A stretch of 4,189 bases of DNA from Escherichia phage Qbeta. Made by a program: the position numbers and the translations under genes. The DNA is taken from the sequence record LC710219.1; one strand, written 5' to 3'. Position 1 is the stretch's first letter, and each line of letters starts with the position of its first letter. This document shows, one piece after another, positions 1-4,169 of this stretch. The notes under the pieces were generated by a model, which searched no databases, was not told where the DNA came from, and worked only from the letters and a program-made list of their open reading frames with translations.

Positions 1-51
1 CCTTAGGGGGTCACCTCACACAGCAGTATTTCACTGAGTATGAGAGGACAT
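1..51 (+). other. 5' untranslated leader, truncated at the 5' end; G-run at 6..10 is the 3' arm of a terminal hairpin whose 5' arm is mostly outside the window
   Basis: No in-frame start before the A2 gene except the ATG at 40; GGGGG at 6..10 has only 2 complementary C residues upstream (1..2) in the window. Levivirus genomes begin with a G-rich 5' hairpin (established knowledge). Confidence 0.7.
42..48 (+). promoter_or_regulatory. Purine-rich Shine-Dalgarno-like element (GAGAGGA) upstream of the A2 start codon
   Basis: GAGAGGA at 42..48, 3 nt before ATG at 52..54; spacing is on the short side. Confidence 0.45.
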
Positions 52-1314
52 ATGCCTAAATTACCACGTGGTCTGCGTTTCGGAGCCGATAATGAAATTC
101 TTAATGACTTTCAGGAGCTCTGGTTTCCAGATCTCTTTATCGAATCTTCCGACACACATCCGTGGTACACACTGAAGGGTCGTGTGTTGAACGCTCATCT
201 TGACGATCGCCTACCTAATGTAGGTGGTCGCCAGGTCAGGCGTACTCCGCATCGCGTCACCGTCCCGATTGCCTCTACAGGCCTTCGTCCGGTGACAACC
301 GTTCAGTATGATCCTACAGCACTATCGTTCTTATTGAACGCTCGTGTTGATTGGGATTTCGGTAATGGTGATAGTGCGAACCTGGTCATTAATGACTTTT
401 TGTTTCGCACTATTGCACCTAAGGATTTCGATTTCTCGAACTCCTTAGTTCCTCGTTATACTCAGGCCTTCTCCGCTTTTAATGCTAAATATGGCACTAT
501 GATCGGCGAAGGGCTCGAGACTATAAAATATCTCGGGCTATTACTGCGCAGACTGCGTGAGGGTTACCGCGCTGTTAAGCGTGGCGATTTACGTGCTCTT
601 CGCAGGGTTATCCAGTCTTACCATAATGGTAAATGGAAACCGACTACTGCTGGTAATCTCTGGCTTGAATTCCGTTATGGCCTTATGCCTCTCTTTTATG
701 ACATCAAAGATGTCATGTTAGATTGGCAGAAACGCCATGATAGGATCCAACGCCTCCTTCGGTTTTCAGTCGGTCACGGTGAGGACTATGTTGTCGAATT
801 CGACAATCTATATCCGGCCGTTGCCTACTTTAAACTTAAAGGTGAGATTACACTCGAACGCCGTCATCGGCACGGTATATCCTACGCTAATCGCGAGGGA
901 TATGCTGTTTTCGATAACGGTTCCCTTCGGCCCGTGTCCGATTGGAAGGAACTTGCCACCGCATTCATCAATCCGCATGAAGTTGCGTGGGAGTTAACTC
1001 CCTACAGCTTCGTTGTTGATTGGTTCTTGAATGTTGGTGACATACTTGCTCAGCAAGGTCAGCTGTATCATAATATCGATATCGTAGACGGTTTTGACAG
1101 ACGTGACATTCGTCTCAAATCTTTCACTGTAAAAGGTGAACGAAATGGACGACCTGTTAACGTTTCTGCTGACCTGTCTGCTGTCGATTCATTTTACAGC
1201 CGATTCCATACGAGTAAGCTTCCGTTCGCTACACTTGATCTTGATACTACCTTCAGTTCGTATAAACACGTTCTTGATAGTATCTTTTTATTAACCCAAC
1301 GCATTAAGCGTTGA
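52..1314 (+). CDS. A2: Maturation (A2) protein: pilus attachment protein and, in Qbeta-type phages, the lysis effector; 420 aa
   Basis: ORF track 40..1314, reading MPKLPRGLRFGADNEILNDFQELWFPDLF from the ATG at 52; recognised from memory as near-identical to Qbeta A2; stop TGA at 1312..1314; length and first-gene position match the levivirus maturation protein. Start at 52 preferred over the in-frame ATG at 40 (see findings). Confidence 0.93.
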   Translation: MPKLPRGLRFGADNEILNDFQELWFPDLFIESSDTHPWYTLKGRVLNAHLDDRLPNVGGRQVRRTPHRVTVPIASTGLRPVTTVQYDPTALSFLLNARVDWDFGNGDSANLVINDFLFRTIAPKDFDFSNSLVPRYTQAFSAFNAKYGTMIGEGLETIKYLGLLLRRLREGYRAVKRGDLRALRRVIQSYHNGKWKPTTAGNLWLEFRYGLMPLFYDIKDVMLDWQKRHDRIQRLLRFSVGHGEDYVVEFDNLYPAVAYFKLKGEITLERRHRHGISYANREGYAVFDNGSLRPVSDWKELATAFINPHEVAWELTPYSFVVDWFLNVGDILAQQGQLYHNIDIVDGFDRRDIRLKSFTVKGERNGRPVNVSADLSAVDSFYSRFHTSKLPFATLDLDTTFSSYKHVLDSIFLLTQRIKR

Positions 1315-1736: not shown

Positions 1737-2330
1737 ACACTGCTCATTGCCGGTGGTGGCTCAGGGTCTAAACCCGATCCGGTTATTACTCCTCCGGATC
1801 CACCGATTGATCCGCCGCCAGGGACAGGTAAGTATACCTGTCCTTTCGCAATTTGGTCCCTAGAGGAGGTTTACGAGCCTCCTACTAAGAACCGACCGTG
1901 GCCTATCTATAATGCCACTGAACTCCAGCCTCGCAAATTTGATGTTGCCCTTAAAGATCTTTTGGGCAATACAAAATGGCGCGACTGGGATTCACGGCTT
2001 AGTTATACCACGTTCCGCGGTTGCCGTGGCAACGGTTATATTGACCTTGATGCGACTTATCTTGCTACTGATCAGGCTATGCGTGATCAGAAGTATGATA
2101 TTCGCGAAGGCAAGAAACCTGGTGCTTTCGGTAACATTGAGCGATTCATTTATCTTAAGTCGATAAATGCTTATTGCTCTTTAAGCGATATTGCGGCCTA
2201 TCACGCCGATGGTGTGATAGTTGGCTTTTGGCGCGATCCATCCAGTGGTGGTGCCATACCGTTTGACTTCACTAAGTTTGATAAGACTAAATGTCCTATT
2301 CAAGCCGTGATAGTCGTTCCTCGTGCTTAG
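1335..2330 (+). CDS. A1: A1 read-through minor capsid protein (coat protein plus C-terminal read-through domain), 331 codons including the recoded UGA
   Basis: Frame 0 stays open from 1737 to the TAG at 2328..2330 (my manual translation of 1737..1961 plus track ORF 1962..2330): TLLIAGGGSGSKPDPVITPPDPPIDPPPGTGKYTCPFAIWSLEEVYEPP...CPIQAVIVVPRA, recognised as the Qbeta read-through domain. Followed by a second stop TAA at 2331..2333. Confidence 0.9.
1734..1736 (+). promoter_or_regulatory. Leaky UGA stop codon of the coat gene (programmed read-through / recoding site, decoded as Trp at low frequency)
   Basis: UGA followed by A (UGA-A context) and by 197 in-frame sense codons with no stop until 2328; read-through of the coat UGA is established for Qbeta. 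Confidence 0.88.
1737..1832 (+). other. Gly/Ser-rich then Pro-rich flexible hinge linking the coat domain to the read-through domain of A1
   Basis: Translation TLLIAGGGSGSKPDPVITPPDPPIDPPPGTGK; nucleotide-level near-repeats CCGATCC / CCGGATCC / CCGATTGATCC at 1774..1815. Confidence 0.75.
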
Positions 2331-2335
2331 TAACT

Positions 2336-2340
2336 AAGGA
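2336..2340 (+). promoter_or_regulatory. Shine-Dalgarno element (AAGGA) for the replicase gene
   Basis: AAGGA at 2336..2340, 8 nt upstream of the ATG at 2349; it overlaps the non-initiating ATG at 2340..2342. Confidence 0.6.
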
Positions 2341-2344
2341 TGAA

Positions 2345-2364
2345 ATGCATGTCTAAGACAGCAT
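2345..2364 (+). promoter_or_regulatory. Coat-protein-binding translational operator hairpin (represses replicase translation; also the packaging recognition element)
   Basis: AUGCAUGUCUAAGACAGCAU folds as an 8-bp stem (2345-2348/2361-2364 and 2350-2353/2357-2360) with a bulged A at 2349 (the A of the replicase AUG) and a 3-nt loop UAA at 2354..2356. This matches the Qbeta operator architecture (3-nt loop, bulged A) known from the literature. Confidence 0.85.
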
Positions 2365-4118
2365 CTTCGCATAACTCTCTTAGCGCACAATTGCGCCGAG
2401 CTGCGAACACAAGAATTGAGGTAGAAGGTAACCTCGCACTTTCCATTGCCAACGATCTACTGCTGGCTTATGGTCAATCGCCATTTAACTCCGAGGCTGA
2501 GTGTATTTCACTCAGTCCGAGATTCGACGGGACCCCGGATGACTTTAGGATAGGTTATCTTAAAGCCGAGATCATGTCGAAGTATGACGATTTCAGCCTA
2601 GGTATTGATACCGAAGCTGCTGCCTGGGAAAAGTTCCTGGCAGCAGAGGCTGAATGTGCTTTAACGAACGCTCGCCTCTATAGGCCTGACTACAGTGAGG
2701 ATTTCAATTTCTCACTGGGCGAGTCATGTATTCACATGGCTCGCAGAAAAATAGTCAAGCTAATAGGAGACGCTCCGTCCGTTGAGGGTATGTTGCGTCA
2801 CTGCCGTTTTTCCGGCGGTGCCACGACAACGAATGACCGTTCGTACGGTCATCCGTCCTTCAAGTTTGCGCTTCCACAAGCGTGTACGCCTCGGGCTTTG
2901 AAGTATGTTTTGGCTCTTAGAGCTTCTACACATTTCGATATCAGGATTTCTGATATTAGCCCTTTTAATAAAGCAGTTACTGTACCTAAGAACAGTAAGA
3001 CTGATCGTTGTATTGCCATTGAACCCGGCTGGAATATGTTTTTCCAACTAGGTATCGGCGGCATCTTACGCGATCGGTTGCGTTGCTGGGGTATCGATCT
3101 GAATGATCAGACGATAAATCAGCGCCGCGCTCACGAAGGCTCCGTTACTGATAATTTAGCAACGGTTGATCTCTCAGCGGCAAGCGATTCTATATCTCTT
3201 GCTCTCTGTGAGCTCCTACTGCCTCCAGGCTGGTTTGAGGTTCTTATGGATCTCAGATCACCTAAAGGGCGGTTGCCTGACGGTAGTGTCGTTACTTATG
3301 AGAAAATATCCTCTATGGGTAACGGGTACACATTCGAGCTTGAGTCGCTTATTTTCGCTTCTCTTGCTCGTTCCGTTTGTGAGATACTGAACTTAGACTC
3401 ATCTGAGGTCACTGTTTACGGAGACGATATTATTTTACCGTCCTGTGCAGTTCCTGCTCTTCAGGAAGTCTTTAAGTATGTTGGTTTTACGACCAATACT
3501 AAAAAGACCTTCTCTGAGGGGCCGTTCAGAGAGTCGTGCGGTAAGCACTACTATTCTGGCGTAGATGTTACTCCCTTTTACATACGTCACCGCATAGTGA
3601 ACCCTACCGATTTAATACTGGTTTTGAATAACCTATATCGGTGGGCCACGATTGATGGTGTATGGGATCCTAGGGCCCATTCCGTGTACCTCAAGTATCG
3701 TAAGTTGCTGCCTAAACAGCTGCAACGTAATACTATACCTGATGGTTACGGCGATGGAGCCCTCGTCGGATCGGTCTTGGTCAATCCCTTCGCGAAAAAC
3801 CGCGGATGGATCCGGTACGTACCGGTGATCATAGACCATACAAGGGACCGAGAGCGCGTCGAATCGGGATCGTATCTCTACGATCTCTTTTCGCGTTGCT
3901 TCTCGGAAAGTAACGACGGGTTGCCTCTAAGGGGTCCGTCGAGTTGCGATTCTGTAAGTCTATTTGCCATAGATCAGCTTATCTGTAGGAGTAATCCTAC
4001 AAAGATAAGTAGATCTACTGGTAAATTCGATATACAGTATATCGCGTGCAGTAGCCGTGTTCTGGCACCCTACGGGGTCTTCCAGGGCACGAAGGTTGCA
4101 TCTCTACACGAGGTGTAA
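2349..4118 (+). CDS. RNA-dependent RNA polymerase (replicase beta subunit), 589 aa
   Basis: Track ORF 2340..4118; true start taken as the second ATG (2349) giving MSKTASSHNSLSAQLRRAANTRIEVEGN...; contains the YGDD catalytic motif; recognised from memory as near-identical to Qbeta replicase; stop TAA at 4116..4118. Confidence 0.95.
   Translation: MSKTASSHNSLSAQLRRAANTRIEVEGNLALSIANDLLLAYGQSPFNSEAECISLSPRFDGTPDDFRIGYLKAEIMSKYDDFSLGIDTEAAAWEKFLAAEAECALTNARLYRPDYSEDFNFSLGESCIHMARRKIVKLIGDAPSVEGMLRHCRFSGGATTTNDRSYGHPSFKFALPQACTPRALKYVLALRASTHFDIRISDISPFNKAVTVPKNSKTDRCIAIEPGWNMFFQLGIGGILRDRLRCWGIDLNDQTINQRRAHEGSVTDNLATVDLSAASDSISLALCELLLPPGWFEVLMDLRSPKGRLPDGSVVTYEKISSMGNGYTFELESLIFASLARSVCEILNLDSSEVTVYGDDIILPSCAVPALQEVFKYVGFTTNTKKTFSEGPFRESCGKHYYSGVDVTPFYIRHRIVNPTDLILVLNNLYRWATIDGVWDPRAHSVYLKYRKLLPKQLQRNTIPDGYGDGALVGSVLVNPFAKNRGWIRYVPVIIDHTRDRERVESGSYLYDLFSRCFSESNDGLPLRGPSSCDSVSLFAIDQLICRSNPTKISRSTGKFDIQYIACSSRVLAPYGVFQGTKVASLHEV
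3417..3428 (+). other. RdRp catalytic motif C (Y-G-D-D) within the replicase
   Basis: TAC GGA GAC GAT in the replicase frame (codons 357-360), in the context VTVYGDDIILPS. Confidence 0.9.
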
Positions 4119-4126
4119 CCTGGGAG

Positions 4127-4143
4127 GGCGCCGATATGGCGCC
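4127..4143 (+). other. 3' UTR RNA hairpin: 6-bp GC-rich stem GGCGCC/GGCGCC with 5-nt loop GAUAU
   Basis: GGCGCC (4127..4132), GATAT (4133..4137), GGCGCC (4138..4143); GGCGCC is self-complementary. Confidence 0.55.
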
Positions 4144-4169
4144 TAATTGTGAATAAATTATCACAATTA
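4144..4169 (+). other. 3' UTR RNA hairpin: 9-bp stem UAAUUGUGA/UCACAAUUA with 8-nt loop AUAAAUUA
   Basis: TAATTGTGA (4144..4152) is the exact reverse complement of TCACAATTA (4161..4169); loop at 4153..4160. Confidence 0.6.

Follow-up and report, generated by a model that had tools for sequence, protein, structure and literature searches.

Genome context and layout of the replicase initiation region

The window analysed here is the whole 4,189-nucleotide stretch of DNA in sequence record LC710219.1, and positions are given in its numbering unless stated otherwise. A megablast search of the whole stretch against the databases matched 81 Qubevirus records, the best of which were FrHibiscus, FrBurgundy and FrMerlot (~96% identity), with Qβ strains HL4-9 and TW18-like records at 95%. 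Laboratory/reference Qβ is ~94% identical over the full length, and M11 and MX1 are 75-76% identical. The map of open reading frames (ORFs) is the same as that of Qβ and consists of A2, coat with its A1 read-through extension, and replicase. By its sequence, the window is the nearly complete genome of an allolevivirus of the Qβ group (Qubevirus durum) and represents an isolate distinct from Qβ itself. A1 of this isolate possesses a two-residue insertion relative to reference Qβ, and at the replicase start the numbering of the window is 3 nt off that of reference Qβ.

The genes and features that meet at the start of the replicase cistron are the following, each given with the evidence on which it was assigned.

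1335-1736, + strand: coat protein gene, which encodes the trans-acting repressor (ORF and identity to Qβ coat protein)
2328-2333, + strand: tandem stops UAG-UAA, the end of the A1 read-through protein (sequence)
2335-2342, + strand: Shine-Dalgarno (SD) region UAAGGAUG, with the core UAAGGA at 2335-2340 (anti-SD duplex and relatives)
2340-2342, + strand: upstream AUG that overlaps the SD and lies in the replicase frame (sequence; Qβ-proper lineage only)
2345-2356, + strand: out-of-frame AUG with a three-codon mini-ORF, AUG CAU GUC UAA, made by the 5' arm of the operator (sequence)
2345-2364, + strand: coat protein translational operator hairpin (folding, covariation, RNAalifold and identity to the published operator)
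2349-4118, + strand: replicase beta-subunit gene, with its true start AUG at 2349-2351 (annotation of relatives, PDB 3MMP_G and SD spacing)

A preliminary description of this DNA had placed the stops at 2328-2333, the SD sequence AAGGA at 2336-2340, AUGs at 2340 and 2349, and a hairpin at 2345-2364 with a bulged A2349, and all of these coordinates are right. The AUG at 2345-2347, the common frame of A1 and replicase, a hairpin at 2326-2338 and the predicted long-range partner of this segment are points that it had missed.

The product of 1335-1736 is identical to Qβ coat protein (PDB 5KIP, 1QBE) at 129/133 residues (97%), the four substitutions being G9S, S34A, A113I and Q127H in mature numbering. 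Tyr89 is kept, and PDB 4L8H is among the solved structures that match this protein. The UAG at 2328-2330 and the UAA at 2331-2333 are in the coat/A1 frame, which opens at the coat AUG at 1335 ((2328-1335)/3 = 331). A1 and replicase share one reading frame, and the doubled stop therefore separates both proteins if the UAG is suppressed. The UAG-UAA pair and the common frame of A1 and replicase are present in 10/10 of the Q. durum genomes examined, whereas Q. faecium possesses a UAA, two codons and a second UAA.

Structure and identity of the operator hairpin

Positions 2345-2364 read AUGC, the bulged A2349, UGUC, the loop UAA, GACA and GCAU, and form eight Watson-Crick pairs. A2349 is the A of the replicase AUG and the single unpaired nucleotide of the stem, whereas U2350 and G2351 are paired. 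The loop is composed of U2354, A2355 and A2356, so that its 3'-most position is an adenine. All 20 nt are the same as those of the published Qβ operator AUGCAUGUCUAAGACAGCAU (PMC12724129), which occupies Qβ nt 2348-2367, is the operator of PDB 4L8H and corresponds to stem-loop 34 of the virion, and there is no difference within the element. The window also matches Qβ in where the hairpin sits on the replicase AUG, in its 8-bp stem, bulged A and UAA loop, and in the SD and tandem stops. The preliminary description had recognised the classic Qβ coat protein repressor operator and had suggested a comparison with the published element; the letter-for-letter match, the 129/133 identity of the coat protein, and a start at 2349 that is annotated in relatives and seen in 3MMP_G all uphold this identification. 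The operator is an element already known in full, having been characterised biochemically, genetically and structurally for decades.

Folding of 2330-2375, another check that had been suggested, gives a minimum free energy (MFE) structure with exactly the hairpin at 2345-2364 plus three extra pairs, and the hairpin also forms in every other context that was folded. The structure ((((.((((...)))))))) is found in the MFE and in the ensemble, where A2349 is unpaired with a probability of 1.00. Pair probabilities are 0.67-1.0 across contexts of 40 to 1420 nt, and 8/8 operator pairs are present in the MFE of the 4,189-nt full genome. The energy of the 46-mer 2330-2375 is unremarkable for its composition (z = -1.13), and energy alone provides no evidence for an operator. 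An all-Watson-Crick hairpin with operator geometry is expected by chance 0.027 times per dinucleotide-shuffled genome, and the one observed here is found exactly on the replicase start codon. An Rfam scan of the whole window returned no family for the operator hairpin. The only hits of the scan, below threshold and attributable to chance, matched a long hairpin at 1920-1993 to mir-2574 on both strands.

Conservation and covariation of the operator within Qubevirus

A 65-nt segment of the junction differs from reference Qβ at only two positions, both of which are 3' of the hairpin. In 66 Qβ-lineage records, identity across 81 nt of the junction is 95% or more. The operator is present in the global MFE of 9/9 Qubevirus genomes (the window and eight relatives), being partial in SP because of a C·A mismatch. 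An RNAalifold analysis of ten sequences from both Qubevirus species recovered the operator hairpin independently. Across these ten sequences, 93.8% of the cells in the alignment of the stem are paired, compared with 20-49% when the partners are slid, and the two outer pairs exhibit compensatory changes on both sides: A-U/U-A in Qβ, C-G/U-A in M11 and MX1, U-A/A-U in SP, U-A/U-A in FI, and A-U/A-U in NL95.

M11, MX1, SP, FI and NL95 differ from the window in their outer stem pairs, which have changed in a compensating way, but like the window they possess a hairpin at the replicase AUG whose upper stem is UGUC/GACA and whose 3-nt loop ends in AA, with an SD 6-8 nt upstream. The last loop adenine is invariant in 10/10 aligned sequences, whereas the loop itself alternates between UAA and AAA; MX1, SP, FI BR1 and NL95 possess AAA where the window possesses UAA. 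The bulged A is not conserved genus-wide, as in M11 and MX1 this A is predicted to be paired, with a bulged C on the 3' strand instead. The geometry that had been called Qβ-specific is thus preserved exactly in the window, but it is not universal in the genus. Among 79 more distant metagenomic loci (~38-48% replicase identity), in which the start was crudely taken as the first in-frame ATG, start-region hairpins were varied and none had the Qβ geometry, many of the loci possessing 4-nt UAAA loops or SD hairpins.

The upper stem and loop of the operator fall within conserved codons and the z-score of the region is just -1.13, as would be expected if the hairpin were a by-product of coding constraint (Met-Ser-Lys-Thr-Ala) and chance complementarity, with no function at the RNA level. 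However, the 5' arm of the lower stem is non-coding, yet it covaries with the coding 3' arm, and the chance count of 0.027 per genome is low for a hairpin of this type. Furthermore, the exact operator sequence has been the subject of decades of binding and structural work (PDB 4L8H; PMC12724129; PMC11724954). The covariation and the published complex effectively refute the by-product reading, the probability of which is negligible.

Repression and packaging

The stem-loop at the Qβ replicase start is the coat protein translational operator (PMC3561173, PMC10610835), and the replicase cistron is repressed by excess coat protein (PMC2978339). Binding of coat protein requires the 3-nt loop, its last adenine and the 8-bp stem (PMC12724129, PMC11724954), and the four-pair upper stem is also needed (PMC11724954). 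The 3'-most loop adenine fills the adenine-binding pocket of the coat protein (PMC12724129), and the bulged A stacks on Tyr89 in PDB 4L8H (PMC11724954), an entry that carries the title of a Qβ coat protein-operator complex in the reference list of PMC11724954.

The operator has also been called a strong encapsidation site in reviews (PMC10610835), and it touches a coat dimer in the virion (PMC8880383). Both observations would suit an element that serves chiefly in genome packaging, through capsid nucleation, with repression as a secondary role. The Qβ virion model, however, contains 33 operator-like stem-loops, of which the operator is just one. The operator is bound to a C/C dimer, whereas the majority of these loops are bound to A/B dimers and are concentrated in the 5' half of the genome (PMC8880383). 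In addition, the conserved position of the operator on the start codon in both Qubevirus species points to translational control, and a role chiefly in packaging is very improbable. The preliminary description had named the hairpin a packaging operator; the contact with a coat dimer in the virion agrees with this, but its uniqueness was overstated, given that 33 such stem-loops are modelled (PMC8880383). A translational operator that also contacts coat protein in the virion is the preferred reading.

Replicase start codon and upstream AUGs

The annotated replicase start in 14 relatives is the equivalent of 2349, and residue 1 of PDB 3MMP chain G aligns to the Met at 2349. The assignment of the true start to 2349 and not to 2340, as made in the preliminary description, is supported by these annotations and by 3MMP_G. 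The SD sequence AAGGA at 2336-2340 extends to UAAGGA at 2335-2340 plus G2342; the anti-SD duplex has an energy of -5.8 kcal/mol and ends at 2341, and relatives possess AAGGAG at the SD position. The spacing between the SD and AUG 2349 is appropriate, at about 6-8 nt.

The AUG at 2340-2342 lies 9 nt 5' of the AUG at 2349-2351 and is in frame with it, with no stop between the two, and it is invariant within the Qβ-proper lineage. It could thus be functional, either as an alternative start that adds Met-Lys-Cys to the replicase N-terminus or as a true decoy that captures ribosomes. Several observations argue against such a function. AUG 2340 overlaps the only SD and is therefore left without an upstream SD at a usable spacing; annotations and the PDB chain 3MMP_G begin at the downstream Met; and the equivalent AUG is absent from M11, MX1, SP, FI and NL95, where AAGGAG or a variant is found instead. 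The U and G of AUG 2340 also pair with a CA of the coat gene in a predicted helix, which offers a non-coding reason for the AUG. A functional AUG 2340 is hence very improbable. AUG 2340 is probably not a start, and as a candidate start it was rejected as a lineage-specific by-product of the SD sequence. The term decoy, which had been applied to it, implies a function for which support was not found. AUG 2340 is accounted for more simply by the SD sequence, which it overlaps, and by the predicted pairing with CAUCC in the coat gene.

Relatives read CUG, UAG, UUG or AAG in place of the second extra AUG, at 2345-2347, which suggests that its mini-ORF is a by-product of the stem sequence. The mini-ORF AUG-CAU-GUC-UAA was accordingly rejected as a functional element and is regarded as specific to the lineage. 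None of M11, MX1, SP, FI and NL95 possesses the upstream AUGs of the window.

Neighbouring hairpins and a predicted long-range helix to the coat gene

Two further hairpins flank the operator, and three segments of the coat gene are predicted to pair with the surrounding region.

2326-2338, + strand: second small hairpin, CUUAG-UAA-CUAAG (RNAalifold, covariation and published stem-loop 33)
2383-2396, + strand: neighbouring hairpin, GCGCA-CAAU-UGCGC (global MFE; operator-like stem-loop 35)
1571-1578, + strand: coat gene segment whose predicted pairing with 2408-2415 would close off the sub-domain containing the operator (global MFE; probability 0.48-1.0)
1582-1592, + strand: coat gene segment CAUCCGUUACU, codons Pro-Ser-Val-Thr, the predicted partner that buries the SD (global MFE and pair probability)
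1642-1650, + strand: coat gene segment predicted to pair with 2316-2324 as a flanking helix (global MFE; probability 0.82-0.99)

The cryo-EM model of the RNA in the Qβ virion contains stem-loop 33 at 2329-2341, stem-loop 34, which is the operator, at 2351-2364, and stem-loop 35 at 2386-2399 in Qβ numbering (PMC8880383 Table S1). These map to 2326-2338, 2348-2361 and 2383-2396 of the window, respectively. In the hairpin at 2326-2338, the UAG lies in the 5' arm, the UAA forms the loop and the 5' half of the SD falls in the 3' arm. Compensatory changes are seen at three of the five pairs, 98% of cells are paired, and the hairpin covaries in both species. It is weak alone (-1.0 kcal/mol) and has a probability of about 1.0 when the coat partner is left out of the construct.

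The full-genome MFE instead pairs AGUAAC at 2329-2334 with GUUACU at 1587-1592 and GGAUG at 2338-2342 with CAUCC at 1582-1586. Ensemble probabilities were obtained from constructs of 1400 nt and 981 nt that contain both sides. In these constructs, the helix over the stops and SD has a probability of 0.91-0.99, compared with 0.01 for the local hairpin at 2326-2338; the unpaired probability of the SD core is at most 0.01, and the operator is unaffected. The global MFE of reference Qβ, M11 and MX1 uses the same coat position as that of the window, and the pairing of 1642-1650 with 2316-2324 is also present in the M11 and MX1 duplexes. In M11, the coat sequence CCU UCA GUU ACU and the junction AGUAACUGAAGG form 12 contiguous base pairs. 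A genome-wide duplex scan ranked the coat site best in M11, by 6 kcal/mol, and top in MX1 also, whereas in the window and in Qβ the isolated duplex falls outside the five best sites genome-wide. The helices of Qβ and M11 differ in register, so that the support does not amount to strict column-wise covariation. Synonymous differences in the Pro-Ser codons between Qβ and M11 are nevertheless matched by differences in the junction, which provides a simple reason for GGAUG, and hence for the AUG, in Qβ. The helix is missing from the global MFE of Qβ strain BR12, SP, FI and NL95, where the local hairpin is used. In a search for duplexes between coat and A1 in SP, FI and NL95, the partner positions were inconsistent, and no long-range helix is claimed for Q. 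faecium.

These results allow two accounts of the segment upstream of the operator. It may be that 2326-2342 always adopts a local hairpin and that the long-range helix is an artefact of the folding algorithm. The virion model has the competing local hairpin, as stem-loop 33 at 2326-2338, and not the long-range helix (PMC8880383); this hairpin covaries in both species; BR12, SP, FI and NL95 have the local form in their global MFE; and the isolated long-range duplex is unexceptional in the window. Set against this, M11 possesses 12 contiguous complementary bases at the homologous coat position, the best site genome-wide by 6 kcal/mol; one coat position is used in the window, reference Qβ and MX1; and the ensemble favours the long-range helix (0.91-0.99) over the local hairpin (0.01). 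Replicase translation is, moreover, reported to be coupled to coat translation in Qβ: ribosomes that pass through the coat gene are stated to open the site at which replicase synthesis starts (PMC2978339, citing Ball & Kaesberg 1973 and Skripkin & Jacobson 1993). A permanently local hairpin is therefore unlikely, although it is the most serious of the alternatives considered here. The helix between 1582-1592 and 2329-2342 is a predicted and not an established structure, and a conformational switch upstream of the operator is plausible and rather likely.

Such an upstream switch has probably already been described in the older Qβ literature. In its most specific form, the 17 nt 5' of the operator would constitute a switch in which the stops, the SD and AUG 2340 are buried with coat codons 83-86 and refold into the coat-contacting hairpin at 2326-2338 after coat translation. 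The AUG would then exist only because GGAUG complements CCA UCC, M11 using CCU UCA and UGAAGG in their place. With every one of these details, the proposal is a long shot.

Discussion

Taken as a whole, the region is best explained by 2345-2364 being the Qβ coat protein translational operator, accompanied by a probable upstream layer of pairing with the coat gene, a reading to which we assign a probability of about 0.93. Early in infection, a 30S subunit would bind the SD UAAGGA at 2335-2340, as its sequence and standard SD rules suggest, melt the modest hairpin of about -6 kcal/mol and initiate at AUG 2349. Once coat protein has built up, a dimer would bind the hairpin at 2345-2364 and lock the AUG in a helix, repressing replicase synthesis, as is known from the literature on the identical sequence. 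In the virion, the same hairpin would be among the many that touch coat dimers, as is likewise described in the literature. In a second layer, the stops, the SD and AUG 2340 may pair with 1582-1592 and close the replicase ribosome-binding site. Ribosomes translating coat are predicted to disrupt this long-range helix and open the replicase site, which fits the reported polarity, and the freed segment could refold into the local hairpin at 2326-2338, a fold that was computed here and whose coat contact in the virion comes from the literature. Both the long-range switch and the reason for the upstream AUG are what we infer from these models.

The operator of MS2/R17 works on the same principle: the replicase AUG lies in a hairpin, and the coat dimer that binds there represses translation and helps in encapsidation. 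Both the MS2/R17 and Qβ operators possess a bulged purine and loop adenines. According to the literature, the loop of the MS2 operator is 4 nt long, its stem is shorter than that of Qβ, and the wild-type coat protein of MS2 discriminates against the hairpin of Qβ. In MS2, the Min Jou interaction between coat gene positions 1427-1434 and 1738-1745 couples replicase translation to coat translation. The predicted helix of the window resembles it, as an internal coat segment would pair just 5' of the operator and cover the SD. Unlike the Min Jou interaction, the Qβ helix bridges about 740 nt, owing to the A1 read-through region, takes in the A1 stops and competes with a local operator-like hairpin.

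The operator serves mainly as a positive control, in that a textbook regulatory RNA was recognised from raw sequence. To this are added two adjacent conserved hairpins, a predicted helix that sequesters the SD, a non-functional explanation of AUG 2340, and a bulged A that is not shared by M11 and MX1. Designers of Qβ-based RNA tags or replicons could make use of these refinements at the junction, but the understanding of the system is unchanged. If the switch and the origin of the upstream AUG are true and are absent from the older literature on Qβ structure, they would add a minor novelty to a long-studied system.

Hairpins in the window and in related phages

For phages M11 and MX1, folding predicts an operator at the replicase start with a 9-bp stem: the first base of the AUG takes part in pairing, and the 3' strand carries one bulged C, the reverse of the layout of the Qβ operator. 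More distant relatives were represented by 79 metagenomic loci (L016-L094), which are IMG/VR contigs with roughly 38-48% replicase identity. Many of these contigs possess a hairpin with a 4-nt UAAA loop immediately 3' of the putative replicase AUG, for example AUGCGACG-UAAA-CGUCGC, and others possess a hairpin that holds the SD and whose 3' arm carries the AUG. The Qβ operator geometry was present in 0 of the 79 contigs among the start-region hairpins inspected, where the replicase start was crudely assigned as the first in-frame ATG.

Apart from the operator, a motif scan of the window gave two hairpins with an 8-bp stem and a 3-nt loop whose last base is A:

698-716: AUGACAUC-AAA-GAUGUCAU, 8 bp, 3-nt loop with final A
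4126-4144: GGGCGCCG-AUA-UGGCGCCU, 8 bp, 3-nt loop with final A

In the published cryo-EM model of the virion RNA, operator-like stem-loop 10 spans 710-722 and operator-like stem-loop 58 spans 4132-4144 (PMC8880383), and the hairpins from the scan are probably these two stem-loops, respectively. A further structure lies in the read-through region of the coat protein gene:

1920-1993: long, nearly perfect hairpin, A1 read-through region

This hairpin is likely to be one of the long central-domain helices of Qβ RNA. It also matches the miRNA family mir-2574 by chance on both strands, scoring 22.8 and 21.9 bits, below the gathering score of 90.

Upstream AUG at the A2 start

An additional AUG precedes the start of the maturation-protein gene:

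40-42: upstream ATG, in frame, 12 nt 5' of the A2 start (52)

An SD, GAGG, lies between this ATG and the A2 start AUG (agtATGagaggacatATG, window 40-54), making the region a second case of an AUG adjoining an SD. Comparison of isolates revealed that the position is polymorphic: the window shares AUG with FrHibiscus, HL4-9 and VK, and AUA is the form present in reference Qβ, BR12, BZ1 and FrSangria.

Length and termination of A1

The A1 read-through protein varies from 330 to 333 codons across isolates of the Qβ group, and, compared with reference Qβ, the protein of the window has Thr-Pro inserted into its proline-rich linker (PDPVI-TP-PDPP):

1335-2330: A1, 2-residue insertion around residues 151-152

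Every Q. durum genome examined possesses UAG-UAA at the end of A1, with A1 and replicase sharing a frame. All Q. faecium genomes examined, except FI 4184b, possess UAA, two sense codons and a second UAA, with replicase in the +1 frame. In FI 4184b (NC_028902, 2350-2368), A1 ends with one UAA in a frame common to replicase, and the next in-frame stop is absent for 591 codons. Given this single UAA and the position of replicase in the A1 frame, read-through in FI 4184b would yield an A1-replicase fusion.
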